A stretch of DNA of 64,000 bases from Paraphysomonas bandaiensis (taxonomy: Eukaryota; Protista; Chrysophyceae). The notes below the pieces were generated by a model that saw nothing but the letters and a program-made list of their open reading frames with translations, was not told the DNA's origin and did no database searches. Below, piece by piece: positions 6,560-40,076 of the stretch (its first letter is position 1; every line of letters begins with the position of its first letter). The position numbers were made by a program, and so were the translations under genes. Where the stretch lies: NCBI GenBank assembly GCA_965644295.1, contig CBFFRP010000132.1, positions 1 through 64,000 on the forward strand, written 5' to 3'.

Positions 6560-6752
6560 GTTACACGGAGTTTTTACCATTTTTTTAAAAACTTTTATTC
6601 AATACATGATGCTGGACTAGAAGGATGGTCTCACAATATGGCATCTCTGCAGTTCGCTTATTATTGACTAGTGACTGCTACTCTGGTTTTTACTCTCAGT
6701 GTGCATAAGTTCATATTCTCTCTATTATCTACGGTTCACTGATTATTTCATT

Positions 6753-9495: not shown

Positions 9496-9869
9496 ACTGC
9501 ACTGCCATTACATACGTACGAATATTGGCCTCAGAAACGTATTCGACAACATCACCTTCATGACTTCAGCTGTGGGGACTGTCGGCTCTCCACATCTCAC
9601 TTCTAGACTACGACATGACATGCATGTGGACATTTTCCTCGTCTCAACCTTCATTTCAAAATACATAGAATACAGTGCACGAGTAGTTTAACCAGAACAG
9701 TGCTCGTTCCATCTCGAAAAAATAAACTGAAGATGGTACCTCCTAAAGATACCGTATCTTGAAAAGACAACCAACTGTGATCACAAATCCTGTTAGGACT
9801 GTGAACAATATTTTGATATTATCACTTTTGGCATCGATATAGAAGTATCTGAATCCCTACTTTAATACA

Positions 9870-11000: not shown

Positions 11001-12123
11001 GCTATATTTGTTGCCATTTGAATGCATGCAATCTGAACTGTTGTTGAGGCTTAAGTGCTTTCAACTGTCCAGTTTGCAATTTTTCACGTTGTTGAGGCTT
11101 AAGTGCTTCCATGTGCTCCTTGTTTGAGTTTGTAAAAACGAATAAATAGGGTAGGAAATTTTTTAGCATAGATTGAGATTGTTTTTAGAAAGTAAATAAC
11201 TCAGTTTTATGTCGACACTTTTTTATTATTTTTTGCTATAGTTATTCTAGAAATACTTTTAAAACAATCTCAACTACTGTGCAGTATCCATATGAACATT
11301 GTGTGAGTAATTGCTTAAGTTAGCCTTGCTTTCTTGAATATGATGTCTTTATAATTGACGGGGCATTTGAATTAATGGCACATCCCATTAAAGAAATGTA
11401 CAGGTACTTGACATGTGCTATATATAAAAAGAATTGAAAATATGCATATTTTACCTAGAAAACATTCATAAGTATATTATTTTCTCCCAAAGTTGAAAGG
11501 AGCTGCAGTACATAATACACATTACACAACTAAACGAAATAATTATACTATGTAATTACACCATATATTAAATATTAAACAGCTTACAGAGACTTCTTCA
11601 GAGTGAATTCGTAGGGCCACCGGGTCACCTTCCTTCGGGCTTCATGCTTGTTTTCTGACACTGAGCGAACAAGCTGATTCCTTGTTGAAAGATCTAAAGA
11701 CGTTTAAGAATGCCAGTTTTTGCTCTCATCCAAGAGTGATCACGAAAAACGTGCAGGAAGTGATTTTGTACAGGGTATTGTGGACAGTGCCGAGGTCACG
11801 AACAGAGCTCGACTTGGTACCTATGAGAATGAATATACCTATCATGAATAAATACTTCATAACATACATATAACACGTGGCACGTGGTGAGCACATATCT
11901 TACATATTATTACATATATCTAATACAATATAGTGACATATTGTTTAGATTTCACTTAGTTCTATATATTTAGCATATATCAAGTACCAGTACATTCCAT
12001 TAATGTGGGATGCCATTAATGATGGTAGTCTAATTCCCGGCAATTATAATGGCATTAATAAAAATGTCCCTAAAATTACAAATAGTTGACATTATTACCA
12101 TTAATGGCCCATAATGATTAATG

Positions 12124-19005: not shown

Positions 19006-19298
19006 TATTAGAATATGGACTGTATCCTAGTATATTCAATGTGGTACTTGAAGACAATGTACGAGAATACAGTGAAGTATGGTGATGTGTAGATGCTGTT
19101 ATGATATTGAGAAAACTGAAATAGTTTGCTCTTTCAAGATATGTTTAGTAGCGAAAGGTCTACAGAAGTAGTGATTTATGCATGGCACAAAACGAGCTTG
19201 TGTTGTTTAACACAATTTGTGTAAACGATATTAATAAATCTATCTAGTCTAACAACTTAATCTCTCTTTGATCTAAGTAAAATGAGCATTTCCCAACA
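19006..19298 (+). repeat. Copia 5' LTR (293 bp, TATT...AACA)
   Basis: Identical by eye to the reassembled 3' LTR. Confidence 0.95.
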
Positions 19299-22200
19299 TG
19301 GTAGCGAGCGAGGAGGAGAGAAGGAGGATAGAGGAGTAGTTCCTCAGTTCAACGAGACTAACGTTGAACAATGGATTGAGGACTTCGAGACATTCCTTAT
19401 GAGGAAGGAACAAAGCGAGGTAGCGGTGGAACTGCCACCTAAGGAGAGCGACTTCGGGGAGCAGCCACTTACGTTGATGGAGGAGAAGGCGTACAGACAG
19501 GCTGTGAAGAGGTATTGGAAGGCGAACGCCATAGCTTATTCTTACTGCAGGGATGCGGTGCAGCATTCCCCGAAAGCGCTGCGTAAATTCCATCTTACTC
19601 ACAAAGCGTTCAAGGCAGAAGGGAGTGGTGTAAACAGGTTCAAAACACATGTAATGATTGATGAGTTGAAGAAGTGTTTTGCTGGAGGGAAGCAAAATAG
19701 GATCAGTGACCTCTTAACTCAATATGGTTCTTTCCGTATGCGTCCGGAGGAGACGGCGAAGGACTACGTACTACGGTTCGAACTACTGCTGAAGGAACTA
19801 CAGGAGCAGCAGCAGGATATCTCGGAGGTATCAAAAACAAGTCGACTACGAGAAGGCTTGCTCAATGAAGAGTATGCTCAACTGAGAGTTGGATTATACT
19901 TGATGGATGATGATGTTAATTATGTAACTGTATCACGTAAGATAGAAGGCTATGATGATACTATGGCTGGGAAGGAAGCGTTGGAGAAGAAGCGTAAAAG
20001 AGTGGAGGAGCTGAACCTGATAGACAGTAAGAAACGATATCGCAGAGAGAGGGATCATCGTAAGAAGAACAACGGTAAGAAGAAGCCGATGAAGAAGGAT
20101 ACAGAGATTACAGGGCAGCGACCTGGAAGTGCCGAATATACTGGGTGCAGAAATTGTAAGTCAAAGGAACATCTTGCCATCGATTGTCCAGCATCGAAAA
20201 AGAAGTACTCGCAAAGCAAGAGCAAGGCTGTGAGGTTTCAAGATGGAAGGAAACCAGACAAAAGACTACTTACAGTTGAAAACATCAGGCGTGGAGAGCC
20301 AGCGGATTTGTCTGACGAAGACGAAGCAAATATGATCGAGCAACAGGAAGAGTATCACTTGTCATGTAATGTGTATGAGACGAATATATGCAGTAGTGTG
20401 CATGAGGATATTCACTATACATACATTGATACCTGTTGTTCGTCATCAATGTTTTTGATAAATGATGTGAATATACTTGATAGACATATGCACACATCAA
20501 AGGTTATTAATGGTTCGAAAAAAGGGTCAGAGATATGCGTCACGAGTGTAGGTTCCCGTGGAGCATGGAAGAACATTGAGGTATCAAGTCAGATAAATCG
20601 GTGTCTTTGTTCTGGACGGAAGTTGAACGATATGGGATATCGATTTACTGTATGGTATGGTATACAGATATATGACAGAAATACGGATGAGCTGGTGTTG
20701 GAGGGACCTATGAAGAATGGAATGACTGCTGTGCCAACACAGCAGTTATTGGAGCTTCCAGACGTATCGACATCCAGTGATTCAGAAGTAAATCTCAGTG
20801 ACCGTACGGGTGAGGATGAACTGGAGCTGTTACATAGGAGAGCGGGTCATTTTAACAAGCATGCGTTGGTAGAAGCCCACAAAAGAATGCTAATTATTGG
20901 GACTGGACTGAAACGAAAACATCTCTCGAAACGTGTTTCCAAAGAACAGTGTCTATGTGATGTATGCGCCAGGGCGAAGATCACCAGAGTAAGTTTTCGG
21001 ACAAAGGATGAGGACTCCGTTCGTCCAAATTTCTCGGCCGATATAGCAGTATACTTAAATTGTCCAGCTCGAGGAGGGGAAATATATGTGCTCAAACTAA
21101 CACACCATGCCAGTCGGATGTTCTGGTCGGAAGGGCTTGTTCATAGGACTGGGTCATCGGTACTGCAGGTTTTCAAGAAGATTTTTGAAGGAGATGTGAA
21201 AAGGTACAAATTAGAAATGCATCATTACCATGCAGATGGAGCAGGGGAGCTAATATGTGATGAGCTGCGACAATATCTTAGGTCACAGGGTTGCTATCAA
21301 CATACGTGGAGCTCTACGGACTCTCCTGAGATGAACGCGATTGAGGAGCGGAAATTCAGGACCTGTGGTGAGATGACATTAGCGATGCTGATTCAGTCAG
21401 GATTGCCTTCACAGTTTTGGCTAGATGCCTACATGGCAGCCAGGTACATATTAATTCGATTGCCTACAAAGACAGCGAAGGGGTATATGTCCCCTCTTGA
21501 ATTTTTGACTGGTGAGGCTCCCAACCTGAAATATCTCAGAGTATGGGGGTGTCGTGCGTATGTCCTCACTACAAAGGCGGATCGACGGAAAGACTGGGAC
21601 GACAAGGCCCTTATCGGATATCTGATAGGATATTCAGATGAAAAGGTAGGATATGATGTATATCTACCTGCGACTGATAGGGTCGTCACGTCGGTACATG
21701 TATTAACTGATGAGTCCATACCGTCACGCTCGGAGAGCTATTTCGCTGAGATAGATGCTCTTCGAGTGAAGGAGGCCGAGAGACCGAAAATTGTGTCTGA
21801 CTATGCGGGCTTAGAAGGTACATATCATATTGATGATGAGGATGGTCTTCTCTACAAGACCACGAGAGTAGTAGAACGAAAGGGGGTAATAGTAGCCTAT
21901 CGATCTCTGGTAACTGCAGGTCGGAAGCATATCGAGCACCGGGTGCCGATTCACGTCGAGGACGTAGTGCGAATGACTGCAGAAACTCCCGGGAATACCG
22001 GATATATAGGAAAGGGGGACGCCCTGAGTACTATGCCAGCCAGGGTGCTGGACCAGGGAAGACCTGGAGGGTTACAGGAGAGTCCTGACCCAACCTGTCA
22101 GGAGACAGCTGTGAGGTTGCAGACCTCTGAAGACTATGAGTCTGGGGTTGTGAGCGGGGCTCCTCCCACAACGCACGATGTGCGTGCTCAGGATGAGCAA

Positions 22201-23994
22201 GGTACGGGTTCTTATATACCTCGTCGACCGATTGAACTAGATGGTGATGGTCGGGTCCGACGCAAACGGCTGCAGCGGAGACTGGCAAACGCGTCAGTTT
22301 TAGGAGAGATTAATATGGTTGAAGTACCGGATGCGCATAATATTGATCTTAACCATGCAGAGACAGAAGATATCAAGATACCAAATTCATATGCCGAGGC
22401 AGAGAGATCTCCACAGTATCAACAATGGAGAAAAGCTCGAATGGTGGAGAAGACATCATTGCTGAAAAGACGTGTCTTGAAGATCGTGAAAATTCCAAGC
22501 GGAGTGAAATTAGTTAGAGCGAAATATGTGCATACGGTGAAGCGAGACATACTAGGGAATATAGTAAAGTACAAGGCTCGGCTAGTGGCATTAGGAAATC
22601 TCCAAGAGAAGAAGGAGGAGGAGCCGTCCACTTTCGCTCCAGTGGTTAAGGGTATAACCATTAGACTAGTGTTAGCGATTGCGTTTATGTTACAGATGCA
22701 TGTGCATCAATTAGATGTATCATCCGCATTTTGCTATGCAGATCTGGAGGATGACGTGTATATGGCACCTCCACCAGATGAGGAATTACTAGCTGGATGG
22801 TGTTTTCAACTAATCAAGGCATTGTATGGACTGCGATCTTCACCGCGACAGTGGAATAAACATATTGACAAGTTTATTAAATCATTGCATTTTACTCCGT
22901 GTATTTTGGATACGTGTTTGTATATGCGATGGAGTAACGGAAAACTGCATTTATTATTGATATATGTTGATGATATCATAATTGCATCCGCTGATCTGAC
23001 TTACTTGGAAAGCGTAAAGCGTAGGTTCTGTGAAACATTCGAGATGCATGATCTGGGAGTGTGTAAGCGATTTCTGAACATCAGGATAACCAGAGGAGAA
23101 AATTGGTATATGTTAGATCAATCTGAGTATGCTAAGAATATTATCAAGAAATTCAGCTCAGTTATGGGAAAGAGTAGTAAGAATAAGGAGGCCCCACTAC
23201 CTACTAATGTTCAGGATCTGTTGGCAGAGGAACGTGAACTTACGGAGGAGCAGAAGCAGTGGGTTGACTCATTTCCGTATCGGCAAATTATTGGAGCAGT
23301 GTTGTATCTAGCAATGCATACTAGACCTGATCTGGCTTATGCAGTGGGGTTATTGTCTCGATTTAGTAGTTGTCCGACATATGCATCGTGCAAACTGGCG
23401 ATTCACTTATTGAAATATTTGCGTGGAACAATTGATGAGGGCATCAGATTCAGTGGGAGTGAGTTCGACTTACATGTGTTCAGTGATTCAGATTGGGCTG
23501 GTGATAGACTGACTCGGCGATCGACAACAGGATACATTGTGTTCTTATGTGCAGGCGCATTGGCCTGGCAGTCTAAACTACAGACCACAGTTGCAACTTC
23601 GAGCATGGAATCTGAATATATGGCGGAGTATGCGGCTATGCAAGAACTGGTGTGGCTTCGGGGGGTGTTCAAGGAGCTCGGGCTCTTAGTTGCGAAGCCG
23701 ACTCCATTCTTTATGGATAGCAAGAGTGCGAAAGATCTCTCCGAGAATCCTGTGTATCATAAGAGGTCGAAGCATATAGACATCAAGTATCACTGGGTGA
23801 GAGAGCATGTAAATGGAAAATTTCCTACGGCAAAGTTGATTCATGTGTCGACGGATGATATGGCGGCTGATATTTTCACGAAGGCATTGTCAACGAAACT
23901 TTTCAGTCGTCATGAGAAAACTATTACCGGGGTTAAGAGAAGTGTGTCAACCAGAGTTGAGGAGCAGCAGAAGAAGCGACCCCGAAGAGGTTAA
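19282..23994 (+). CDS. Copia gag-pol polyprotein, 1570 aa (Gag-PR-IN-RT-RH)
   Basis: CRNCKSKEHLAIDC knuckle; YIDTCCS; LLHRRAGH...CDVC; FSADI, HADGAGE, NAIEER (DDE); YKARLVA, QLDVSSAF, IYVDDII; FSDSDWAGD, ADIFTK. Confidence 0.97.
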   Translation: MSISQHGSERGGEKEDRGVVPQFNETNVEQWIEDFETFLMRKEQSEVAVELPPKESDFGEQPLTLMEEKAYRQAVKRYWKANAIAYSYCRDAVQHSPKALRKFHLTHKAFKAEGSGVNRFKTHVMIDELKKCFAGGKQNRISDLLTQYGSFRMRPEETAKDYVLRFELLLKELQEQQQDISEVSKTSRLREGLLNEEYAQLRVGLYLMDDDVNYVTVSRKIEGYDDTMAGKEALEKKRKRVEELNLIDSKKRYRRERDHRKKNNGKKKPMKKDTEITGQRPGSAEYTGCRNCKSKEHLAIDCPASKKKYSQSKSKAVRFQDGRKPDKRLLTVENIRRGEPADLSDEDEANMIEQQEEYHLSCNVYETNICSSVHEDIHYTYIDTCCSSSMFLINDVNILDRHMHTSKVINGSKKGSEICVTSVGSRGAWKNIEVSSQINRCLCSGRKLNDMGYRFTVWYGIQIYDRNTDELVLEGPMKNGMTAVPTQQLLELPDVSTSSDSEVNLSDRTGEDELELLHRRAGHFNKHALVEAHKRMLIIGTGLKRKHLSKRVSKEQCLCDVCARAKITRVSFRTKDEDSVRPNFSADIAVYLNCPARGGEIYVLKLTHHASRMFWSEGLVHRTGSSVLQVFKKIFEGDVKRYKLEMHHYHADGAGELICDELRQYLRSQGCYQHTWSSTDSPEMNAIEERKFRTCGEMTLAMLIQSGLPSQFWLDAYMAARYILIRLPTKTAKGYMSPLEFLTGEAPNLKYLRVWGCRAYVLTTKADRRKDWDDKALIGYLIGYSDEKVGYDVYLPATDRVVTSVHVLTDESIPSRSESYFAEIDALRVKEAERPKIVSDYAGLEGTYHIDDEDGLLYKTTRVVERKGVIVAYRSLVTAGRKHIEHRVPIHVEDVVRMTAETPGNTGYIGKGDALSTMPARVLDQGRPGGLQESPDPTCQETAVRLQTSEDYESGVVSGAPPTTHDVRAQDEQGTGSYIPRRPIELDGDGRVRRKRLQRRLANASVLGEINMVEVPDAHNIDLNHAETEDIKIPNSYAEAERSPQYQQWRKARMVEKTSLLKRRVLKIVKIPSGVKLVRAKYVHTVKRDILGNIVKYKARLVALGNLQEKKEEEPSTFAPVVKGITIRLVLAIAFMLQMHVHQLDVSSAFCYADLEDDVYMAPPPDEELLAGWCFQLIKALYGLRSSPRQWNKHIDKFIKSLHFTPCILDTCLYMRWSNGKLHLLLIYVDDIIIASADLTYLESVKRRFCETFEMHDLGVCKRFLNIRITRGENWYMLDQSEYAKNIIKKFSSVMGKSSKNKEAPLPTNVQDLLAEERELTEEQKQWVDSFPYRQIIGAVLYLAMHTRPDLAYAVGLLSRFSSCPTYASCKLAIHLLKYLRGTIDEGIRFSGSEFDLHVFSDSDWAGDRLTRRSTTGYIVFLCAGALAWQSKLQTTVATSSMESEYMAEYAAMQELVWLRGVFKELGLLVAKPTPFFMDSKSAKDLSENPVYHKRSKHIDIKYHWVREHVNGKFPTAKLIHVSTDDMAADIFTKALSTKLFSRHEKTITGVKRSVSTRVEEQQKKRPRRG
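19299..19310 (+). promoter_or_regulatory. Copia primer-binding site (possibly initiator tRNA-Met)
   Basis: TGGTAGCGAGCG directly after the LTR-terminal CA; TGG complements tRNA CCA. tRNA identity is an inference. Confidence 0.7.
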
Positions 23995-24330
23995 AGGTGT
24001 GTTTTAGTGGGTGAGAATCCCACATAACTATATATCTAGTTGACTGCTAGTTATATATGTATCTTGATAAGATTTCACATCTATTTTACCTATGAGACTA
24101 GTTTATAGCATGAAGATCACTGTACTCATTGTTGTTTCGTATCACTGCATTCTACATTGAGTGGGAGTATTAGAATATGGACTGTATCCTAGTATATTCA
24201 ATGTGGTACTTGAAGACAATGTACGAGAATACAGTGAAGTATGGTGATGTGTAGATGCTGTTATGATATTGAGAAAACTGAAATAGTTTGCTCTTTCAAG
24301 ATATGTTTAGTAGCGAAAGGTCTACAGAAG

Positions 24331-25342
24331 TGTGACCACGTGGCATTTCCTATGCCCTATCTACGTGGCTATAGTACCAGAACTACATGCATTGCCCATT
24401 CAGGACCCTATAATATTAGTTCAGGACCATACATCAAGAACATTATATCATTAGGACCCTATACCATGTCTAGGATGCATATTCTATGTTATACTCATTA
24501 AGATGGGTTAATGAGCTATGATGTACCTACACACTGAATCAACGTTCAGGTGTGATGTCCACTTTATCTACTGATGATGTACACTATGATCTGCTGATGG
24601 TGACTTCACGCAATGTGAAACCTGCCACAAATTTATAATAAAGTTATGTGGGTCAGTATTCCAGTGTAGCAGTTGCAGTGTATACTTCCATAGGAATACG
24701 TACTGGCCTTACCCATACTACCCTATAGGGGGGCAAGTACATATCACATCAAGGGTGAATGAATATTATATACTCGAGGTGCACGAGTGTTCATACCACT
24801 CAGTGGGGAATCAATTGTGACATGCAATACGTGGTATGCAGGGTTATATTTACGTATAACCTGGATATTAGGGGTTTTGGGTTCTTGAATGCTAAAATAC
24901 ACCAAAGTGGCGGTATACTGTTTTTGTATGGGTATTTAGGTAGAAAGTAAAACGTAGGATGTAGTGTACTATTAGTATGCGGTTATACGTTGCTCCTAGG
25001 TTGCTGTGTGTATTCAGTTTATAGAACAAACACGTTTCTGTGGGTGGTGATGACGTTGCAGGGTGTTGTGATGTTGTTGAGGAGTAGGAGTGGGTGTAAC
25101 ATGTATGCTATGTTGTTATGCACTTGTTTAGGCTTAACCGAAGTGCTTGGTGCCAACGATCTTGTTGCACTGGCGGTGTTCCTTGCGTGGTGATACTTGG
25201 CGGGTATCATTTACTGAGCATTAGGTTTTTCCTAGAGCAGTCAAAACATAATTAATTATACATTGTTTTCACACTTGCGTGTTTGTGTGCTATACCTGTA
25301 CTGCGAGCCGTGATTCTGGTTATCAAACCGGGTTACGTCACA
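24331..25342 (+). repeat. Gypsy 5' LTR (1012 bp, TGTGAC...GTCACA)
   Basis: Direct repeat of 31694-32710; three T(C/T)AGGACC motifs at about 24400-24463. Confidence 0.95.
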
Positions 25343-25726
25343 GTAAATATTTACTATTTGCTCGCACAAGAATTCTTGTGATTAATTCTTGATACACATC
25401 ATTTAGATAGACCTGTCTGTGTGCCTTGCTTGTGTGCGTTGTGCAGGGGTGTCTTGTGTCAGTGTGTTGAGTGGTGTCTTGGTGTCTTGGTGGATTCTTA
25501 CGCAGGTCTGTGGATTTGTCAGTTTCTTCCGGGGGACTTGGGACTGGATTTGAGTTATTTCATTGAGACCTGTGAGCGAATTTTAATTCCCTCCTTGTCG
25601 ATCGTCGTTAGTCTCTGAAACCAAGGGAGCTGCGTAACTCTGAGGTGAAAAATCTGCTGGTGTGCTTAAATATAATCACTGTGTGGGTATATAAACTGAG
25701 GAGTGTAACAGCAACTAAGGTGGAAG

Positions 25727-27535
25727 ATGCAAACTCCCGTTGGTAGGAGTAGCCCTAAGAGCCACTCTGGTTCTGAAGGCAGTGTTAAGGAGGATCTAGA
25801 GCCTTCAATGCTCGAAATCATTCTTGCACGTTTCGATGCCTTGGAAAGGAAATTCGATACGAGAATAGATGACCTTACGGTCAGAGTTACGCGACTTGAA
25901 GAGCGGGCCTCACGTAGAGGTACACCAGTCGGCTCTAGAGCGCAGAGCCCCACGATTTTAAGGGAAGATCAAAATATCCCAGGGGCAGATGAATCAGTTA
26001 CGAAAGGAACACCTACAGTTCCTGACACGTTGCCGAAACCGGTAAAGAAACGTGATACAAGGAGATACTCTACTCTGCATAATTTAGCGGAGCACTATCG
26101 TACTCCTTGGCGGGATGAGTCTGTAAGAGAACTGTTGGAGGAGGAAGATACTTCTACTGCTCAGTCAAGTGGCAATGCTGAGGAGGAAGGTGACCAGCAG
26201 ATCGCTTCTGAATTCCCTACTAGAACTCAAGCTTTGTTGGGAGGCAAGAAACCTGGGAAGCTGTTCAGGGAATTGAAAAGGAATGCCAACCTTCCAAATG
26301 TGCAACAGACTGTTGTAATGCGTGAGGAAAGAACTTGCAAAGTTCGTATCAATGAACTAAAGCTTTCTAAAGTGGCTAGAGCTGTCAAACAAATCTTGGA
26401 TTTTCAGGAAGAGGAACAGACCACTGTGCGTCTGCAAAAGGTCGTTTCTGGTGAACTAAGAGATCATCTAAGAGAAGTATATCATCTCGGTCATGCGGAG
26501 ATTTCAGAGATGGATTTGTCCGACTTACTGCGTGTAATAGCCAAGGAAACTCGGGTTTTTAATTGTGTGGGATTCTATGAGGAGCTACGAGATTCTCTTA
26601 GACACATAAAGATCATGGAGTGGAGGAAAGTGACAACTGTCACGTTCGAACAGTTTTACTTTCAGCAGTTGAAACTTATTGATTTGTTTCGAACCATGTT
26701 ATCCATTATGTTGGAGTTTAATAAGGATTGGTGTCCCAGAGTAGATGACAAAGAATATGGGCTCGTAAGACTATTCAAAAACTTGAACGATAGGGATTAT
26801 GTTCGTTATGTCTTTGGGTGCATGAATAAACTACAGTTTGACACGATGAACGAGTTCTTCGATGAATTTACGGCCATTTTAGTAGATCATTATCAGATTT
26901 GCTTAGCAGCTCGTCAGTTACCGTTTGAGGCTAACATTGAGGCTAAAAACAAACTTGATGAGTACAACAAACGGAAAAGGGATTTGTTTTCCAAGAATAA
27001 TGAGAAACATCCGTCTCCGATGCGGTCTACTTCTTACAAGGACTATGATCATCGGAATAACAGAGATTCACATGCTCTCACTCACATTGATGGATATGTT
27101 TCTGATGATTCGGATTTTGATCGAGGTCCGGAGCAGATAAATCTCGAATACCCTAGTTCTTCAGATGATGAAGAGGGTAACATTGATTTACGTCGTGGCT
27201 CAGCCAAGGACGTTACATCATCGCAGGATCTGGAACCTGATCCTACAGCAGTTGTTAATGAGCAAGAGGTTTCTTTTATGGCTTCTTCTCAGGATAAACC
27301 TGCTGGTGATACGAGTTCGAGAGTTGAGAAATTCGGTTGCCTGAGGCATATGTTGTATGGGAAATGCAACAAGCCACAGTGCAAATACAACCACAATTCT
27401 CAGTGCTTGAGAACCTCGGCTGTTGAGATGAGGGATAAGCTCAATGCTTTCCTGAAAGCTGAGGATGGTTCCACTGGTAGATCCAATCCAACTTCTATCT
27501 TGAGAAGGGATCGCTTCGGTGATTCCCGACCTTGA
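25727..27535 (+). CDS. Gag-like ORF1 (602 aa) with coiled coil and C-terminal CCCH finger
   Basis: Lies upstream of pol inside the LTRs; CLRHMLYGKCNKPQCKYNH. Confidence 0.85.
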   Translation: MQTPVGRSSPKSHSGSEGSVKEDLEPSMLEIILARFDALERKFDTRIDDLTVRVTRLEERASRRGTPVGSRAQSPTILREDQNIPGADESVTKGTPTVPDTLPKPVKKRDTRRYSTLHNLAEHYRTPWRDESVRELLEEEDTSTAQSSGNAEEEGDQQIASEFPTRTQALLGGKKPGKLFRELKRNANLPNVQQTVVMREERTCKVRINELKLSKVARAVKQILDFQEEEQTTVRLQKVVSGELRDHLREVYHLGHAEISEMDLSDLLRVIAKETRVFNCVGFYEELRDSLRHIKIMEWRKVTTVTFEQFYFQQLKLIDLFRTMLSIMLEFNKDWCPRVDDKEYGLVRLFKNLNDRDYVRYVFGCMNKLQFDTMNEFFDEFTAILVDHYQICLAARQLPFEANIEAKNKLDEYNKRKRDLFSKNNEKHPSPMRSTSYKDYDHRNNRDSHALTHIDGYVSDDSDFDRGPEQINLEYPSSSDDEEGNIDLRRGSAKDVTSSQDLEPDPTAVVNEQEVSFMASSQDKPAGDTSSRVEKFGCLRHMLYGKCNKPQCKYNHNSQCLRTSAVEMRDKLNAFLKAEDGSTGRSNPTSILRRDRFGDSRP

Positions 27536-30500
27536 TGGAAGGACCATTGCGTGCGGGGAGCGCAGGATGTCAGTGTAGTTAATGGGTGTGACGGGGATGA
27601 CGATTGTTGCTTACAATTTGAAGAGTCTACATTCACGGCGGCATTGTGTTCTGTGCAAACCGAGGGACAAGCTAAGCTGTATGCTTGCTTTCCTAGTACG
27701 CGAAAAATGACATCAGCACATACGGTAGCTAGGCTAATAATGAACAATAATATGAGAGAGAATTCGGAAAAATTGATCACCGTACTTTGCGATACGGGAG
27801 CGCTTTCAGCCAACTATGTGTCTAGGGGTCTGGTAGAGAGTTTAATGCCAGAGCTAAACCCCGAATTTTTATACGATGCGAATCATAGAGTAGTATTGGC
27901 GGATAGTACTACTATAAAAACAGTCACACAAGGAGTCAGACTCAATCTTTTGTTGGCTGACCCTTATGGAAAACAGTATCAGTTCAAAGGGGATTTCCTA
28001 ATTATTGACATGAAACATAATGATGTCATACTTGGATTGCCGGCACTTACTGGTACTTTGTATCCCTTTATGTGTGAATTGATGAGGCATGCTTTTGAAC
28101 AAACATCTTATGAGATAGAAAGTGATACAAAGAAGATTTCAACTCATGATTTGTCTCGTCTAGAGCATGGACAAATAGTGGAACCATGGTCTAAATCGAG
28201 TACTCAAATTGCACCGGAGGAAGAGGATTCCGAATTGCCGGTTCAATTTAAAGAAGCTTTGGTATTCTTAGGAAAGACTAGAGCGGAAGCTTTAATAGAC
28301 TATGAACAGTTGTTGGAGACCCATGTTAGTAGTGAGATGAAGGAACAAACAAATGTGATGCATCTCCTACGAACTAAAGCGGTTAAAGTCTTTGTACCAG
28401 ATGAGTGGTCTGGTGTAAAAGGTGTTGAACCTTTAAAAATTAAGTGGAAAGATACACTTCCGGATCGGATCAAACCCAAAGCGAGGCCTATTAACCCGAA
28501 GCTGTGGGAAGCATCAGAGAAAGAATTTCGTCGTCTGTGTGGGTATTTTTACCGGAAGAGTAGATCGCCATGGGCTTCTTGTCTTGTAGTAGCGCCCAAG
28601 GCTACACCTCCTTATATTCGATTTTGTGGGGATTACGTTAAGATAAATGATCACATGCATGTGGGAAACTACACTATTCCCAATGTCAAACATGAACTTG
28701 ACAAGATCATTAATTTTCCATATTATTTGGATATAGATCTTACAAATGCGTTTCATCAAATACCTTTAGATGAGGAAACTTCCGAGAAATTGTCCATTCA
28801 AACGCCATGGGGACAGTTTGCACCTAATTTCATGCCAGAGGGTATAGCTCCGGCTACTGGTGTTCTGCAAGAGGTTGTTCGGGAGATATTTGCCGATTTT
28901 TCAGACTGGGCTATCGTTATCTTTGATAATATGCTAATACTAGCCAACGATCCCCAGGATGCTTATGAAAAGTTGGAACGAGTTATTGACAGATGTCTGG
29001 AGAGAAACATAAAGTTGAAAATGGCTAAGAGCTGGCTTGGTTTTAAGAAAGTTAATTTTTTTGGATATGTGTGCAAACACAAATCGTATGAAGTGTGTCC
29101 GGATAAAAAGGAAGCCTTGGCAAACATACCCATGCCATCATCGACTAAACAAGCTAGATCTCTGCTAGGCAAGGGAGTTTTCTTTTCCAGCTTCACGCCA
29201 AAGTATTCTGACTTAGTAGGTCATTTAACGGACCTCACTAAGAAATCTTTCAATTGGAATAAATCTACTTGGCGTCACGATTATGAAGCTGAGTACAAAC
29301 GTTTCATAAAAGGTTTACAAGATGCGTGTGAGCTCTTCTACCCTGATTATGAGTTAGAGTGGATTTTACGGACTGATGCAAGTGAGCTAGGTATAGGTTC
29401 TGTACTACTACAACGGAAGGTATTACCGTCAGGAGAAGCTCAATTGCAACCTATTGCCTTTATCTCTAAAAAGTTTTCAGAGCAAGCAATGAAATGGGCT
29501 ACTATAGAGCAGGAGGGCTACGGTATCTACTATTCGGTTAAACAGCTAGCGTATTATTTAGTTGGAAAACAGTTTACTATAGAGACTGACCATAACAATT
29601 TGCTCTGGATGGAAGCGTCTGAGGTACCAAAAATTGTTAGATGGAGAATATTCTTGCAATCATTCAATTTCAAAATCCGACATATTTCGGGAGCACAGAA
29701 TTGGTTAGCAGACTGGTTATCCAGGGAACACCAACTGGCTTATCTGTCGGGCATGTTCTTGGATGATTCTATGTGGGATGATGCCTATTTTCTGGGAGAG
29801 GACTGTCAGGATTCTGAGTATTTCTCATTCCTAGGAAATTTTATGGACCCGTTGGATCTCAGTGACCAAGAACAACCTTCCATGAATATATCTCGTGAGG
29901 AATGCTTGCGTGAGGTACACAACTCTCGCGTGGGTCATCTTGGAGGGAAAGCTACTTGGATTCGTCTCAATAAACGTTTTCCAGGGCATGGAATACCATA
30001 TCAGGTGGTAGCAGAATATATATCCAACTGTCCAACTTGCGTGAAAACCCGGTTAGCCATGAAGGAAGCACTTATTCCCATAGTGCGCAACCTAAAACCA
30101 CCGGGGGCTCGCAGTGCTATTGGAATTGATGCAGTGGAGATTACTCCACATGGCAAGGACGGTTACACTCATATCAATGTGATAGTGAACCTCCACACAA
30201 AGCTCGTTTTTCTGGAACCAGTTAAAGGAGTAACGGCTTTGAATTTAGCGAATACTGTTTGGAAGTATTGGTCCTATTACGGCCACACTGACGTCGTGAT
30301 TTCAGACCAGGGTCCGGATTTAACTTCGGATCTATTCCAGCAGCTAACGGAATACATGGGAATGCGCCATACGTTTAGTATAGCCAACCGGCATGCGAAT
30401 GGCTCAGAACGTACCATAGGTGAGGTAGTTCGTCACCTACGAGCTCTAGTATATGATGCTAGCGAGCGTCAAGAGCGCAAGGATGTTTTTGAAGATCCTA

Positions 30501-31522
30501 GCTGGATCGCCAGTGTCCAACACATTCTTAACTCCGAAGTGTCATCTGAGACAGGATTCTCACCATTCGAGTTGACTTTCGGATCGGAGGATAAGCGTTA
30601 TTTTAACGTGGACACCGACTCTCTTTCTCAGGATGCGCATGCAAGACTTAAACGTTTTAATGATAACCTTCGTGAGCTCAGGGCAGCTTCGCACGCTTAT
30701 CAACAGCGTCTTGTGCAAGAGCGGGCTAGCCAAGGTATACCGGCCGACAAGCAGAACAGATATCAGCCGGGAGATCTTGTTTTGTTCGACAAGGGTGCTA
30801 AAGTACATCCTAAGATGTCTCACCGTTATATGGGTCCTTTCAAAGTCATATCTCAATATAAAAATGACATTGATTGCAGACATTTGGTGACAGGACAAGT
30901 TGTGAAAGTCGATGTGCGGGAGGTTAAACTTTTTGCGGGTGATCAAGACACAGCGTATAACATGGCTTGCAGAGACCATGAACAGCATGTGATTGACACG
31001 ATTCTATACTACAGAGGGGATAGAGACACCAGAACCTCTCTAGTTTTCACTGTGAAATTTCAGGATGGTGATGTTCGTGACATTCCATTCAGTAAGGATA
31101 TTTTTGACTCTATTCCATACGCCGACTTCTGTTCTAGGAAAAGATATTTGTATCATCTTATTTATCCTGTTAAAGAGGCAAAGGAATATATTACTAAAAT
31201 CCGTAAGCAGCCTATCACTAGTTTTCAACCAGGTGATGAGGCTTATGTTGACTTAAGAGTTTTCGGGGACTTGTGGTATGAAAGCCTGGAGTTACCGGAT
31301 TCTCATTTGATTACTTATGTTGCGCGTTTTGTCTTCACACATTGGTATCATAAAAGTTCCAAACGGATACTCTCAACTAAAAATGTGTTGACTAAACAAA
31401 CTTTCCGACTTGATAATTACCATATTCATTGTTTTGCCCATAAAGAATTTGATTCTTCTACAATGGTCTTGGTAGACGAGGAATTTGCCAGCAAATTTCC
31501 ACAAGTTAATCAGTCGGTATAA
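27536..31522 (+). CDS. Gypsy pol (PR, RT, RNase H, integrase, chromodomain-like tail), in frame with gag after one TGA
   Basis: LCDTGA; SPWAS, RFCGDY, DIDLTNAFHQIPL, VIFDNML; LRTDAS, EQEG, ETDH, ADWLSR; HNSRVGH...CPTC, IGID, ISDQG, NGSER; YMGPFKV. Confidence 0.95.
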   Translation, partial: WKDHCVRGAQDVSVVNGCDGDDDCCLQFEESTFTAALCSVQTEGQAKLYACFPSTRKMTSAHTVARLIMNNNMRENSEKLITVLCDTGALSANYVSRGLVESLMPELNPEFLYDANHRVVLADSTTIKTVTQGVRLNLLLADPYGKQYQFKGDFLIIDMKHNDVILGLPALTGTLYPFMCELMRHAFEQTSYEIESDTKKISTHDLSRLEHGQIVEPWSKSSTQIAPEEEDSELPVQFKEALVFLGKTRAEALIDYEQLLETHVSSEMKEQTNVMHLLRTKAVKVFVPDEWSGVKGVEPLKIKWKDTLPDRIKPKARPINPKLWEASEKEFRRLCGYFYRKSRSPWASCLVVAPKATPPYIRFCGDYVKINDHMHVGNYTIPNVKHELDKIINFPYYLDIDLTNAFHQIPLDEETSEKLSIQTPWGQFAPNFMPEGIAPATGVLQEVVREIFADFSDWAIVIFDNMLILANDPQDAYEKLERVIDRCLERNIKLKMAKSWLGFKKVNFFGYVCKHKSYEVCPDKKEALANIPMPSSTKQARSLLGKGVFFSSFTPKYSDLVGHLTDLTKKSFNWNKSTWRHDYEAEYKRFIKGLQDACELFYPDYELEWILRTDASELGIGSVLLQRKVLPSGEAQLQPIAFISKKFSEQAMKWATIEQEGYGIYYSVKQLAYYLVGKQFTIETDHNNLLWMEASEVPKIVRWRIFLQSFNFKIRHISGAQNWLADWLSREHQLAYLSGMFLDDSMWDDAYFLGEDCQDSEYFSFLGNFMDPLDLSDQEQPSMNISREECLREVHNSRVGHLGGKATWIRLNKRFPGHGIPYQVVAEYISNCPTCVKTRLAMKEALIPIVRNLKPPGARSAIGIDAVEITPHGKDGYTHINVIVNLHTKLVFLEPVKGVTALNLANTVWKYWSYYGHTDVVISDQGPDLTSDLFQQLTEYMGMRHTFSIANRHANGSERTIGEVVRHLRALVYDASERQERKDVFEDPSWIASVQHILNSEVSSETGFSPFELTFGSEDKRYFNVDTDSLSQDAHARLKRFNDNLRELRAASHAYQQRLVQERASQGIPADKQNRYQPGDLVLFDKGAKVHPKMSHRYMGPFKVISQYKNDIDCRHLVTGQVVKVDVREVKLFAGDQDTAYNMACRDHEQHVIDTILYYRGDRDTRTSLVFTVKFQDGDVRDIPFSKDIFDSIPYADFCSRKRYLYHLIYPVKEAKEYITKIRKQPITSFQPGDEAYVDLRVFGDLWYESLELPDSHLITYVARFVFTHWYHKSSKRILSTKNVLTKQTFRLDNYHIHCFAHKEFDSSTMVLVDEEFASKFPQVNQSV

Positions 31523-31693
31523 AGTGTTCCTACTCTACAATTTACGATGTGAAATTTTTCAGTATTCTCCGAATTACATCTATAATATGATAATAATACT
31601 CCATGGTGGTTCGTTTCGATGGCTATTTCAAACCTAGTCCCATTGACATGTGTGCGACCATGGATTTCTCACAAAAACGAGGGGGGGAGGCAG

Positions 31694-32710
31694 TGTGACC
31701 ACGTGGCATTTCCTATGCCCTATCTACGTGGCTATAGTACCAGAACTACATGCATTGCCCATTCAGGACCCTATAATATTAGTTCAGGACCATACATCAA
31801 GAACATTATATCATTAGGACCCTATACCATGTCTAGGATGCATATTCTATGTTATACTCATTAAGATGGGTTAATGAGCTATGATGTACCTACACACTGA
31901 ATCAACGTTCAGGTGTGATGTCCACTTTATCTACTGATGATGATGTACACTATGATCTGCTGATGGTGACTTCACGCAATGTGAAACCTGCCACAAATTT
32001 ATAATAAAGTTATGTGGGTCAGTATTCCAGTGTAGCAGTTGCAGTGTATACTTCCATAGGAATACGTACTGGCATTACCCATACTACCCTATAGGGGGGC
32101 AAGTACATATCACATCAAGGGTGAATGAATATTATATACTCGAGGTGCACGAGTGTTCATACCAGACTCAGTGGGGAATCAATTGTGACATGCAATACGT
32201 GGTATGCAGGGTTGTATTTACGTATAACCTGGATATTAGGGGTTTTGGGTTCTTGAATGCTAAAATACACCAAAGTGGCGGTATACTGTTTTTGTATGGG
32301 TATTTAGGTAGAAAGTAAAACGTAGGATGTAGTGTACTATTAGTATGCGGTTATACGTTGCTCCTAGGTTGCTGTGTGTATTCAGTTTATAGAACAAACA
32401 CGTTTCTGTGGGTGGTGATGACGTTGCAGGGTGTTGTGATGTTGTTGAGGAGTAGGAGTGGGTGTAACATGTATGCTATGATGTTATGCACTTGTTTAGG
32501 CTTAACCGAAGTGCTTGGTGCCAACGATCTTGTTGCACTGGCGGTGTTCCTTGCGTGGTGATACTTGGCGGGTATCATTTACTGAGCATTAGGTTTTTCC
32601 TAGAGCAGTCAAAACATAATTAATTATACATTGTTTTCACACTTGCGTGTTTGTGTGCTATACCTGTACTGCGAGCCGTGATTCTGGTTATCAAACCGGG
32701 TTACGTCATA
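31694..32710 (+). repeat. Gypsy 3' LTR (1017 bp, ends GTCATA)
   Basis: Differs from the 5' LTR by 4 substitutions and 2 small insertions as counted by eye. Confidence 0.95.
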
Positions 32711-33139
32711 GAAGTAGTGATTTATGCATGGCACAAAACGAGCTTGTGTTGTTTAACACAATTTGTGTAAACGATATTAATAAATCTATCTAGTCTAACA
32801 ACTTAATCTCTCTTTGATCTAAGTAAAATGAGCATTTCCCAACAGTAATGGCATTATAATTGTCGGGGCATTATTTTCATTAAGGCCATTATAATTGCCA
32901 GGAAGTAAGTGGTCTACCATTAATGAGCCATTAATGGCTACCAGGCCTTGGATTGATTAATCATAAGATACTCTTCATAATTTCATAACTCCTCTATTAT
33001 TATAATATCCAGCAATTCTGATAATAACCTGCTACGTCAAGTTATGACACAATTGGATGATTTACTAAGTTAACTGGATGTGTATTCACTCATTAATCAA
33101 GTTAAGATAAGAGAAGATTATAATAAATATAATAAACAA

Positions 33140-34793: not shown

Positions 34794-35256
34794 TGTCGTC
34801 GTAGAAAACATAAGAATTATGTGGAATCGAATTCTAGCGACGAGGATGACTTAAATTCTAGCAATGAGGAGGAGCAGGAAGTCACAGAGAGCGAGCTGGA
34901 AAAATGTATCAGTGAAAGTTCCGATGAATTCAGCAGTTCTGATGGTGAGGATGAAATACAGTTCAAAGTAGGTGAGAAAGTGAGAAATATTCATGGGCTC
35001 AATGGTATAGTTACTGCAGTGAATGGAAAGTTATATGATGTTACCTATATTGATGGTCGTACTGATAGACTTAAAGTCATTGTATTTAAGACCACAAGTA
35101 GTTAGAAACAAAGTAGGTTCGAATAGGACAATGACTGCTGGCAGCTACACTTATGTTGCTCATGATGATCAATGGGTTGACCGTGGTAGTATAAGGGCAG
35201 ATAACGTGGTTGCTGGTAAGCGAAAACGTGCTTCTGTTACATCCTATAGGACTTAA
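34794..35256 (+). pseudogene. Decayed small gene: acidic stretch + SH3/Tudor-like segment + basic tail
   Basis: FKVGEKVRNIHGLNGIVTAVNGKLYDVTYIDG continues after an apparent frameshift into ...VAGKRKRAS; no clean start. Confidence 0.3.
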
Positions 35257-35581
35257 AATGTTAATAAAATTAATATTTTTTGTTGTCTCTAACCCTAACA
35301 CTACAAATAGAATAGCTTTTTAAACATTTCTGTTTATATACTGTAAATACTCCTAAATTTCCCAAAATATCGTAGAATTCCCACGTTTGCATAATGTTTA
35401 CTTAACTTAACAAGTGATAATGAGAATTACCCCTTGTTCATATCATTATTTATTTGATATTTGAGCACGGGAGGACATTGCCCCTATATAACGCGTGGTT
35501 AAATATAACTATACTCATATCGCCACAAATTGATCATAAGCACACACACAGGAAAAGCTCGGAGTAATGCACCCTACTTAG

Positions 35582-36199
35582 CAGGCTTGCGTAACAATTA
35601 ATTGGTTTTCAAAGTGATAAGTTCAATATTTATTATCGGTAAAAGTTGCCAATTTATTATATATAGAAACTTACGATGTCCGCGCTTTTGCAGTATTCAC
35701 CAAGTGACTTTCCAGAACTTTTGTAAGCGGCGACGTGCGCATCCCAATATATATGTCATCGACTTTCTCGACTGCCGCTGGATTATCCCCCTGCCCTTTT
35801 CCCTCGAGGGCATGAGCGCCTGGCGCTCTGCCTTTCCCAACTTCAATTGGGCCGATGCCAGGTAGGAAGAGCTGCGAATCAGATCTGCAAACTCTGCTGA
35901 GACTTTCGCACTAAAGTTAGCGGGGATATGGTCGAGAATCCTAGCCCAATCCCCTCCAGCTAGTTCTTGCAGCTCGTCGTGGATCCACTGCGAGTAAGCC
36001 TGGTCGGCGCTAGCCCGTTTGATTGCACCTATTTTGCTAACACCTAGAAATGTTGATGTTTTTTTGGGATGAGATTATAGGTCATAGAGTCATTCTAAAA
36101 TCAATCAATAGAACTAAATGCAAGTAATTGGATGCTTGATTAATAATTCCAATTACTATTGTTGGACACCGGTCACCAATTAACTGTTACGCAAGCCCG
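35582..36199. mobile_element. hAT-like non-autonomous element with an exon-like interior
   Basis: TIR CAGGCTTGCGTAACAATTAATTGGT / ACCAATTAACTGTTACGCAAGCCCG; CTACTTAG at 35574-35581 and 36203-36210. Confidence 0.7.
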
Positions 36200-36426
36200 C
36201 TACTACTTAGTGCGCGGACCAAGTGGAGTTACATCTATTCGAAGTAGACAAAAGCGATAATATATAGAAATATCACAACTATTCGTTCGTTATTACAAAC
36301 TCAATAAAGCACATGGAAACACTTAAGCCTCAACAAAGTGCTTGTTTCACCCGAAAATAACATATGGAAGCACTTAAGCCTCAACAATATGTTTAAAATC
36401 AATAATTTATTGGCAACAAATATAGC

Positions 36427-36886
36427 TTAGAAGCACTTACGGTGGACAATAGAAGGTCCAGACTCGTCATACTCAGCCTTGGAGATCCACATTTGCTGGA
36501 AAGTAGAAAGAGAGGCGAGAATGGATCCACCAATCCAGACACTGTACTTGCGCTCTGGGGGAGCGACAACCTTGATCTTCATGGTAGAAGGAGCAAGGGC
36601 AGTGAGCTCCTTTGTCATACGCTCGGCAATGCCAGGATACATAGTAGTACCGCCAGACATGACGACATTGGCGTATAGATCCCTGCGGATATCGACATCG
36701 CACTTCATGACAGTCTGGAAGGTGCAGTCGTGAACACCACTGGCCTCCTTGCCAATAAGCGAGGGCTGGAAGAGAACCTCCGGGCATCTGAATCTCTCGT
36801 TACCAATGACAATGACATTGCCATCAGGGAGCTCGTAAGACTTCTCGAGAGCAGATGACTCGGCAGCGGTCTTCATCTCCTGGTCG
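36427..36886 (-). pseudogene. ACT: 5'-truncated actin fragment (C-terminal ~150 codons) made by the tandem duplication
   Basis: Matches 38215-38674; breaks within FDQEMK. Confidence 0.93.
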
Positions 36887-37369
36887 GCTTTTTAAACATT
36901 TCTGTTTATATACTGTAAATACTCCTAAATTTCCCAAAATATCGTAGAATTCCCACGTTTGCATAATGTTTACTTAACTTAACAAGTGATAACGTGGTTG
37001 CTGGTAAGCGAAAACGTGCTTCTGTTACATCCTATAGGACTTAAAATGTTAATAAAATTAATATTTTTTGTTGTCTCTAACCCTAACACTACAAATAGAA
37101 TAGCTTTTTAAACATTTCTGTTTATATACTGTAAATACTCCTAAATTTCCCAAAATATCGTAGAATTCCCACGTTTGCATAATGTTTACTTAACTTAACA
37201 AGTGATAATGAGAATTACCCCTTGTTCATATCATTATTTATTTGATATTTGAGCACGGGAGGACATTGCCCCTATATAACGCGTGGTTAAATATAACTAT
37301 ACTCATATCGCCACAAATTGATCATGAGCACACACACAGGAAAAGCTCGGAGTAATGCACCCTACTTAG

Positions 37370-37987
37370 CAGGCTTGCGTAACAATTAATTGGTTTTCAA
37401 AGTGATAAGTTCAATATTTATTATCGGTAAAAGTTGCCAATTTATTATATATAGAAACTTACGATGTCCGCGCTTTTGCAGTATTCACCAAGTGACTTTC
37501 CAGAACTTTTGTAAGCGGCGACGTGCGCATCCCAATATATATGTCATCGACTTTCTCGACTGCCGCTGGATTATCCCCCTGCCCTTTTCCCTCGAGGGCA
37601 TGAGCGCCTGGCGCTCTGCCTTTCCCAACTTCAATTGGGCCGATGCCAGGTAGGAAGAGCTGCGAATCAGATCTGCAAACTCTGCTGAGACTTTCGCACT
37701 AAAGTTAGCGGGGATATGGTCGAGAATCCTAGCCCAATCCCCTCCAGCTAGTTCTTGCAGCTCGTCGTGGATCCACTGCGAGTAAGCCTGGTCGGCGCTA
37801 GCCCGTTTGATTGCACCTATTTTGCTAACACCTAGAAATGTTGATGTTTTTTTGGGATGAGATTATAGGTCATAGAGTCATTCTAAAATCAATCAATAGA
37901 ACTAAATGCAAGTAATTGGATGCTTGATTAATAATTCCAATTACTATTGTTGGACACCGGTCACCAATTAACTGTTACGCAAGCCCG
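37370..37987. mobile_element. Second copy of the hAT-like element at 35582-36199
   Basis: Part of the 1788-offset duplication. Confidence 0.7.
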
Positions 37988-38214
37988 CTACTACTTAGTG
38001 CGCGGACCAAGTGGAGTTACATCTATTCGAAGTAGACAAAAGCGATAATATATAGAAATATCACAACTATTCGTTCGTTATTACAAACTCAATAAAGCAC
38101 ATGGAAACACTTAAGCCTCAACAAAGTGCTTGTTTCACCCGAAAATAACATATGGAAGCACTTAAGCCTCAACAATATGTTTAAAATCAATAATTTATTG
38201 GCAACAAATATAGC

Positions 38215-39345
38215 TTAGAAGCACTTACGGTGGACAATAGAAGGTCCAGACTCGTCATACTCAGCCTTGGAGATCCACATTTGCTGGAAAGTAGAAAGAG
38301 AGGCGAGAATGGATCCACCAATCCAGACACTGTACTTGCGCTCTGGGGGAGCGACAACCTTGATCTTCATGGTAGAAGGAGCAAGGGCAGTGAGCTCCTT
38401 TGTCATACGCTCGGCAATGCCAGGATACATAGTAGTACCGCCAGACATGACGACATTGGCGTATAGATCCCTGCGGATATCGACATCGCACTTCATGACA
38501 GTCTGGAAGGTGCAGTCGTGAACACCACTGGCCTCCTTGCCAATAAGCGAGGGCTGGAAGAGAACCTCCGGGCATCTGAATCTCTCGTTACCAATGACAA
38601 TGACATTGCCATCAGGGAGCTCGTAAGACTTCTCGAGAGCAGATGACTCGGCAGCGGTCTTCATCTCCTGGTCGAAGTCGAGGGCGACGTAGGTGAGCTT
38701 TTCCTTGATGTCGCGGACAATCTCTCTCTCGGCAGTGGTGGTGAAAGAGTATCCACGCTCTGTGAGAATCTTCATCAAGTAGTCAGTGAGGTCACGGCCA
38801 GCAAGATCGAGACGGACAATAGCGTGGGGCAAGGCATAGCCCTCGTAAATGGGGACGGTGTGGGATACACCATCACCAGAGTCAAGGACACACCCGGTAG
38901 TACGGCCAGAGGCATACAGGGAGAGAACAGCCTGGATGTTAACATACATGGCGGGTACGTTGAATGTCTCGAACATGATCTGAGTCATGCGCTCTCTGTT
39001 AGCCTTGGGGTTAAGAGGAGCCTCGGTGAGAAGAACGGGGTGTTCCTCAGGAGCGACTCTGAGCTCGTTGTAGAAGGTGTGGTGCCAGATCTTCTCCATA
39101 TCGTCCCAATTAGTCACGATTCCGTGCTCAATAGGATACTTAAGGGTAAGAACACCTCTCTTGGACTGAGCCTCGTCTCCCACGTAGGCATCCTTCTGAT
39201 CCATGCCAACCATGATACCAGGGTGCTTGGGGCGTCCCACAATAGAAGGAAACACAGCACGAGGGGCATCGTCTCCAGCGAAACCAGCCTTACACATGCC
39301 GGACCCATTATCAACCACCAAAGCCTGTACGTCGTCGTCTGCCAT
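38215..39345 (-). CDS. ACT: Actin (376 aa), inverted paralogue
   Basis: Identical to 9870-11000 except TTMYPG versus TTMFPG. Confidence 0.99.
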
Positions 39346-39497
39346 TGTATTAAAGTAGGGATTCAGATACTTCTATATCGATGCCAAAAGTGATAATATC
39401 AAAATATTGTTCACAGTCCTAACAGGATTTGTGATCACAGTTGGTTGTCTTTTCAAGATACGGTATCTTTAGGAGGTACCATCTTCAGTTTATTTTT

Positions 39498-40076
39498 TAT
39501 GTATGTATGTATGTATGTATGTATGTATGTATGTATGTATGTATGTATGTATGTATGTATGTATGTATGTATGTATGTATGTATGTATGTATGTATGTAT
39601 GTATGTATGTATGTATGTATGTATGTATGTATGTATGTATGTATGTATGTATGTATGTATGTATGTATGTATGTATGTATGTATGTATGTATGTATGTAT
39701 GTATGTATGTATGTATGTATGTATGTATGTATGTATGTATGTATGTATGTATGTATGTATGTATGTATGTATGTATGTATGTATGTATGTATGTATGTAT
39801 GTATGCAGGTGGGTATGTATGTATGTATGTATGTATGTATGTATGTATGTATGTATGTATGTATGTATGTATGTATGTATGTATGTATGTATGTATGTAT
39901 GTATGTATGTATGTATGTATGTATGTATGTATGTATGTATGTATGTATGTATGTATGTATGTATGTATGTATGTATGTATGTATGTATGTATGTATGTAT
40001 GTATGTATGTATGTATGTATGTATGTATGTATGTATGTATGTATGTATGTATGTATGTATGTATGCAGGTGGGTAT
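39498..40076. repeat. (TATG)n microsatellite, about 570 bp, with GCAGGTGGG at 39805 and 40065
   Basis: Direct reading. Confidence 0.99.

Follow-up and report, generated by a model that had tools for sequence, protein, structure and literature searches.

A Ty3/gypsy clade whose reverse transcriptase carries asparagine in place of the third catalytic aspartate

We describe a complete Ty3/gypsy LTR retrotransposon (24331-32710) of Paraphysomonas bandaiensis in which motif C of the reverse transcriptase (RT) reads IFDN. The element lies within the 64,000-nt stretch of DNA analysed here, which we refer to as the window. The motif (ATC TTT GAT AAT, window 28919-28930, within WAIVIFDNMLIL) sits in a stop-free pol frame at 27536-31522, and the canonical arrangement, in which motif C is (Y/F)xDD and the site has three aspartates, is absent from this RT. 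Comparative sequence data make it probable that IFDN is a fixed signature of a large and diverse Ty3/gypsy clade, and that the RT is a working polymerase with two essential aspartates plus an asparagine, its active site having been rebuilt around that asparagine. We regard it as very likely that the RT is an active polymerase. By contrast with that confidence, our more specific proposal, that the third carboxylate has been relocated, with Asp134 and Glu170 as the particular case, is tentative, the balance being somewhat against it. Residue numbers (Asp134, Asp136, Glu170, Asp199 and Asn200) are counted from window position 28331.

Both the codons and a gap-free alignment of IFDN with the YxDD of the Ty3, CaMV and MMLV RTs place the motif where the first-pass annotation of this sequence had put it. 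That annotation had also reported an intact first catalytic aspartate in DIDLTNAF and an altered motif B, MPEGIAPATG, and we find both (aspartate codon at 28736-28738; motif B starting at 28832). Sequencing error can be ruled out as the source of IFDN: a contig from an independent run (X1), covering 27922-30258, has 10 differences from the window but zero at IFDN; a contig from an RNA library (X16 record 7, 28702-29004) has 0 differences, motif included; and a further locus (L004), with 98.8% identity to the window, has the identical four motif codons. The features of the element and of the copia element around it are collected in Table 1.

Table 1. Features of the IFDN element and its surroundings (window positions)
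Feature	Position	Strand	Basis or remarks
Intact copia element	19006..32844	+	canonical YVDD at 22963; TSD GTAAT
Target-site duplication (TSD) GAAG	left 24327..24330, right 32711-32714	+	5-nt AGAAG equally possible
5' LTR, TGTGAC...GTCACA	24331..25342	+	
Expected primer-binding position, two perfect palindromes	25342..25380	+	14 nt 25342-25355, 16 nt 25365-25380; sequence
Putative gag ORF, 602 aa	25727..27535	+	position; weak CCCH-finger match, E 0.04
pol ORF, 1328 codons, protease - RT - RNase H - integrase	27536..31522	+	no stop or frameshift
Aspartic protease DTG motif	27791..27799	+	LCDTGA at 27785 (DTG at pol residue 86); weak profile alignment to Ty3 protease
RT core (fingers + palm)	28427..29110	+	Pfam RVT_1 E 4.5e-11
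RT motif A DxD	28730..28738	+	extra clade-specific Asp 28730-28732, two residues before catalytic Asp 28736-28738; homologue counts
RT motif A aromatic Phe	28751..28753	+	homologue counts
RT motif B MPEGIAPATG	28832..28861	+	Glu 28838-28840; alignment and homologue counts
RT motif C, IFDN instead of YxDD	28919..28930	+	Asp 28925-28927, Asn 28928-28930; alignment and homologue counts
RNase H	29345..29725	+	D 29375, E 29513, D 29588, D 29711; Pfam RT_RNaseH E 4e-25
Integrase zinc finger and core	29894..30409	+	D 30128, D 30305, E 30407; Pfam Integrase_H2C2 and rve
Polypurine tract (PPT) ahead of 3' LTR	31679..31690	+	sequence
3' LTR, TGTGAC...GTCATA	31694..32710	+	

The IFDN element is a member of Ty3/gypsy (Metaviridae): it has the domain order of that group, a Ty3-type RT, and LTRs together with a TSD and a PPT. 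Over 1013 aligned bases, 4 mismatches separate its two LTRs, as do two indels (3 and 2 nt). Pfam matches place RT, RNase H and integrase at pol residues 383-511, 604-710 and 787-951, respectively; no Pfam match was found for the protease region. The catalytic residues of RNase H are conserved in 303/304, 289/293, 288/288 and 280/281 of the aligned homologues, and those of integrase in 247/247, 240/241 and 237/238. Between the second integrase D (residue 924) and the E (residue 958) there are 33 residues, a spacing that does not fit the DD(45-53)E given for BEL/Pao integrases in PMC554778 and that rules out membership of that group. Ty1/copia membership is likewise ruled out, because RNase H precedes the integrase and the RT is matched by RVT_1, not RVT_2. 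In the integrase tail (window 30800-31519) we found no Pfam match, Chromo included; a C-terminal chromodomain is present in the clade members P0541 (E 8e-7) and P0554 (E 4e-9). Ty3 of S. cerevisiae (PDB 4ol8, 7q5b) is the top PDB sequence match (E 5e-93 with a profile, ~25% identity) and shares with the IFDN element the order protease, RT, RNase H, integrase, as well as LTRs, PPT and a short TSD. It differs in having YLDD as motif C, T two residues before the catalytic aspartate of motif A, and MPFG in motif B, where the IFDN element has IFDN, D and MPEG.

Two further features set the elements examined here apart from Ty3, namely the junction of gag and pol, which is either an in-frame TGA or a fusion, and the lack of a visible tRNA primer site. 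In the window, the TGA at 27533-27535 closes the gag ORF and pol continues in the same frame. In-frame gag-pol TGA codons also occur at L001:2022-2024, L017:3005-3007 and L018:3312-3314, where the next base is C (T in the window), and gag and pol form one fused ORF in L002, L003 and L007. We infer that the TGA is passed by read-through. Gypsy primer-binding sites are of the tRNA type, or self-priming in Tf1-like members. We looked after the 5' LTR for a tRNA-type site with a TGG start and found none; a similar AATATTT(A/C)CTAT stretch follows both the 5' LTR of the window and, in L002, the putative end of the LTR (L002:1891-1910). Self-priming of the Tf1 type gained no support: in both the window and L002, the longest stretch after the LTR that is complementary to the LTR itself measures 8 nt, which is about what chance would give. 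The window contains no tRNA genes.

To establish how widely the motif occurs, we drew on three homologue searches. The first, of which we examined the best 120 of 499 matches, returned xxDN in 120/120. The second covered the best 150 of 30,290 sequences that represent clusters at 50% (302 of them with E no higher than 1e-30); 147 of these 150 have xxDN, and the remaining three read AFEN, IMDG and YLDD. The third used the deepest-branching member, P0320, as query, and the best 120 of its 340 matches held 85 further proteins, 84 with xxDN and one with IFGN. Among the 343 pooled homologues listed, xxDN is found in 339, ruling out both a private mutation and a chance origin of IFDN; the motif C Asn is present in 341/343, as is the first motif C Asp. 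The sole DD among the 343 belongs to the YLDD protein, P0289, an arthropod polyprotein at ~30% identity that falls outside the clade, so that DD is found in 0/342 of the clade members listed. At position 1 of the motif these 342 members have I, L, M, V, A, Q or C and never Tyr or Phe, while position 2 is Phe in 323/343 of the homologues listed. The AFEN (P0295), IFGN (P0496) and IMDG (P0332) proteins are nested within the clade and look like cases of decay or secondary change. The clade is diverse: grouped at 50% identity it makes up more than 140 clusters, and 337 near-complete Asn-bearing RT cores have a median pairwise identity of 51% and a minimum of 32%.

No DD-type sister group was found among the listed matches, those of the P0320-based search included; viral-contig searches with P0289 and P0541 as queries found nothing, and a search of the ESM Atlas returned generic gypsy RT clusters only. 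Because our queries carry DN, the ranking is biased, by a few bits against scores of ~200 bits or more. A DD sister group could be present among the weaker matches, below those listed.

Two acidic residues elsewhere in the active site are nearly fixed alongside the asparagine. Asp134, two residues upstream of the catalytic aspartate of motif A, is D in 332, N in 5, E in 5 and K in 1 of the 343 homologues, the K being that of the outgroup P0289 only; the equivalent residue is T in Ty3, S in CaMV and V in MMLV. Glu170 of motif B is present in 341/343, in place of F in Ty3 and CaMV (MPFG and VPFG) and Q in MMLV (LPQG), and it co-varies with motif C. The catalytic Asp136 itself is invariant (343/343). 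The aromatic residue of motif A (F in 318 and Y in 25 of the 343) occupies what we take, by comparison with HIV-1 Y115, to be the steric-gate position that discriminates dNTPs from rNTPs, and its retention is consistent with a DNA polymerase. The basic fingers residues K90 and R97 align with the conserved K and R of Ty3. The five homologues with N at position 134 suggest that negative charge there is dispensable in some members, which counts against Asp134 being a necessary compensation.

We next consider how the asparagine has been maintained. A FastTree tree of the 343 RT cores and the window RT, with only P0289 as an RT from outside, holds ~122 substitutions per site inside the clade. By parsimony, Asn200 changed once on this tree (to Gly), Asp199 twice, Asp136 never, Glu170 once and Asp134 10 times, against 70 changes at the median site; there are zero events of Asn200 to Asp. 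D/N exchange does occur at other conserved RT sites, as indicated by position 101, where D is replaced by N in 14 sequences of the 343-homologue set, and by position 134. We conclude that Asn200 is constrained like the catalytic aspartates. Moreover, 18 DNA copies of the motif divide equally between the two Asn codons, 9 with AAT and 9 with AAC (6 and 9 after merging near-duplicates; L016, which has no motif, was left out of the count). The inference of the first-pass annotation that IFDN is an evolved site, and not a lone GAT-to-AAT lesion, therefore stands: both Asn codons are in use, motif B co-varies, and xFDD, which it had named as the form that most close relatives of a private mutant would carry, is found in 0/342 of the listed clade members. 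What that annotation had overlooked is the near-fixed extra aspartate of motif A and a published natural YVDN motif in nematode BEL/Pao elements, to which we return below.

Several comparisons among sequences indicate that the RT is under purifying selection. Between the window and L004 the RT core has 4 synonymous and 0 replacement changes; between the window and L001, dN is 0.15 and dS is saturated, as it is in 4/5 pairs, for which no dN/dS ratio is given. In four sequencing runs, 17/19 variants in pol are synonymous and 8/13 in gag, among 40 variants listed out of a set in which 143 more exist. In four of five multi-copy clusters RT varies less than any other part of pol, the exception being cluster P0002, with 3/235 variable sites in RT versus 0/205 in thumb and RNase H. 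Overall, conservation of the RT equals that of RNase H (0.72 vs 0.70).

The motif is also present in transcripts. A transcriptome-derived protein of 1271 aa from the cultured host (P0654) has 99.2% identity to the window pol, carries IFDN and has no difference in the RT core. The metatranscriptome contigs give patchy coverage, filling 13 to 22 of 30 bins, and DNA may be included among them. These transcript data bear on the idea that Asn is converted to Asp after transcription or translation, by A-to-I editing or deamidation, such that the enzyme is canonical after all. A single A-to-G change would indeed turn AAT into GAT, but X16 record 7, which comes from an RNA library, has 0 differences at the motif and P0654 reads IFDN. 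Edited genomic RNA would, moreover, return as DD elements, and 0/342 were seen. Deamidation is favoured by a Gly after the Asn, and in the alignment rows listed the residue after the Asn is bulky and hydrophobic, not Gly. We consider such recoding scarcely credible.

The genomic context of the IFDN element bears on whether its RT is functional. The element is inserted in the 3' LTR of the copia element. With the insert taken out, the two 293-nt LTRs of that copia element are identical, with 0 differences, which indicates that the IFDN element was inserted after a recent event. An empty-site joint, 24325-32710, occurs in four runs; we rejected it as an insertion polymorphism, since the copia 5' LTR has the identical sequence and the joint is uninformative. 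The copia element has LTRs that start with TA, not TG, a TGG-type primer site and a single ORF of 1570 aa. In favour of a working RT in the IFDN element are the intact RNase H and integrase residues, the near-identical LTRs, the TSD, the nesting and the transcript with IFDN; against it is the fact that a single D-to-N change in yeast Ty1 or Ty3 abolishes transposition (PMC2148107 and PMC5371799). A dead polymerase site is conceivable, with the RT fold retained as scaffolding, either for RNase H or for assembling particles, and the cDNA being made in trans by a canonical copia RT or a DD-type gypsy RT. In its favour, an intact copia RT with YVDD is encoded at the same locus, and no tRNA primer site was seen. 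However, the most constrained sites of the RT are both essential aspartates, the steric-gate aromatic, K90 and R97, residues that would not be expected to persist in a dead site across a clade with so low a median identity, and all other enzymes of the element are intact. We therefore judge a dead site very improbable, and retain the reading that the RT is a polymerase.

In an AlphaFold2 model of the protein (pLDDT 85.4, pTM 0.63) the predicted RT fold is ordinary; residues 131-136 form the strand that bears motif A, and residues 194-205 the hairpin of motif C. Its structural matches include Ty3 RT (Z 24.8, rmsd 5.8, 389 aligned), CaMV (Z 24.7) and XMRV (Z 24.3), which are tied for the top place, and an MMLV fragment (Z 22.9, rmsd 2.5, 233 aligned). 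From the alternation of side chains along the motif A strand, together with the geometry of HIV-1 RT, in which we assume that V108 lies near D186 and that Q151 is at the dNTP pocket, we infer that Asp134 faces the active site, on the same side as the catalytic aspartate and near Asn200.

Asparagine at this position has precedents, both engineered and natural. In Ty3, D151N and D213N abolish polymerase activity, whereas D214N is active with lower processivity; all three are lethal for transposition (PMC5371799). Ty1 D211N has a 223-fold lower kpol, prefers Mn and does not transpose, and second-site suppressors in RNase H bring transposition back to 5-10% (PMC2148107). The statement in the first-pass annotation that such second-Asp-to-Asn mutants keep some polymerase activity, and that the Ty1 mutant fails to transpose, is thus correct. 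Ty1 D211N is the same substitution with activity retained, but it is a laboratory mutant of a copia-type element and is dead for transposition. Taken together, the Ty3 D214N and Ty1 D211N data suggest that the third aspartate is the one that can be lost, given compensation.

Natural enzymes with Asn are known from two other systems. Nematode BEL/Pao elements (Cer7-Cer12; Belpaoviridae) have a lineage-wide YVDN motif in intact elements (PMC554778, citing Bowen and McDonald, and PMC9094657); according to PMC554778, the biochemical function of these enzymes remains to be demonstrated. They resemble the clade in having Asn at the third aspartate, but they keep the Tyr, and since they belong to a different superfamily in animal hosts, the DN of the clade and the YVDN of BEL/Pao are probably of independent origin. 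VP1, which serves birnaviruses as RNA-dependent RNA polymerase, has an ADN motif whose Asn, at the equivalent position of motif C, coordinates an ion; changing ADN to GDD raises activity, and a role in growth control has been proposed (PMC3394715). VP1 shares the natural Asn, but it is not an RT: it is an RNA polymerase with a permuted palm, unrelated in sequence. In the literature we searched, which largely left aside subscription papers and repeat databases, we found no account of the IFDN gypsy clade or of its signature. Thus, natural D-to-N change was already known, and what is apparently undescribed is a large gypsy radiation that lacks the Tyr and in which the Asn is fixed together with two acidic residues.

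These precedents lend some weight to a simpler account, in which the RT is active but slower, or favours Mn, like Ty1 D211N, the Asn being kept for self-restraint and Asp134 and Glu170 being unrelated clade markers. The Ty1 and birnavirus data are in line with this account, and so is the tolerance of the extra motif A aspartate for N. On the other hand, zero reversions over the depth of the tree are hard to reconcile with restraint alone, because copies that had reverted to a faster enzyme ought then to spread, and the yeast single mutants do not transpose. We consider this account unlikely, though it is the strongest of the alternatives that we weighed.

Our preferred reading, a working polymerase rebuilt around the asparagine, suggests the following mechanism. 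The catalytic aspartate of motif A and the first aspartate of motif C would bind metals, as in Ty3. The Asn may help to place the primer-activating metal or the pyrophosphate, like the Asn of the birnavirus ADN motif. The extra motif A aspartate, near the Asn, would supply the lost charge or orient the Asn, which would explain the absence of one-step reversion to Asp. The motif B Glu, along with the shift of the aromatic residue from position 1 to position 2 of motif C, may re-tune the dNTP and primer pocket. Asp at position 200 would by now be disfavoured and the compensation fixed, Asp134 and Glu170 being the candidates for it. In its boldest form, the proposal is that in a whole protist gypsy radiation the third catalytic carboxylate has left motif C and now resides in motif A (DxD...DN plus the motif B Glu), that the move is now irreversible, and that it may be accompanied by a non-tRNA primer; in this form we hold it to be possible but rather doubtful.

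Other members of the clade and other parts of the window yielded observations of a different kind. In a sub-branch with IFDN, P0309 and P0321 are polyproteins of 2600-2700 aa with an Exo_endo_phos (AP-endonuclease-like) domain after the integrase; P0309 additionally has a SET domain, and P0462, from the same cluster, is annotated 'exodeoxyribonuclease III'. Such cargo is unusual for a gypsy pol. The clade loci L004-L015, L017 and L018 are small contigs in bacterial genome bins and in IMG/VR, one of them in a bin labelled as a giant virus, and they are probably mis-binned eukaryote DNA. The window itself has near-perfect tandem duplications at 1-9645 (a 4058-nt unit, 99.96%) and 35200-38674 (a 1687-nt match, 99.94%), which are either very recent or assembly artefacts. 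It also has two inverted actin loci with 97% identity (9717-11149 and 38067-39498), a 920-aa protein with a Cache-like domain and TPR repeats (60700-63462), and a citrate synthase whose nearest named matches are from the chrysophytes Spumella (84%), Mallomonas (83%) and Ochromonas (81%), which makes the host look like a chrysophyte.

What the third RT aspartate contributes is a question of long standing; retroviral RTs become inactive when this residue is changed. In the clade described here, hundreds of RTs carry the Asn naturally, in elements that appear to be mobile, and two residues are candidates for compensating it, so that a mutant cycle of modest size could address the question. The enzymes of the clade might differ in how they use metals, in fidelity or in pyrophosphorolysis, and enzyme engineers would find this of interest. 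There are also consequences for annotation, in that filters requiring YxDD would score the elements of this clade as dead, and its small contigs are probably mis-binned into bacterial and viral collections. If our proposal is true, evolution would have rewired two-metal catalysis in the DxD...DN site.
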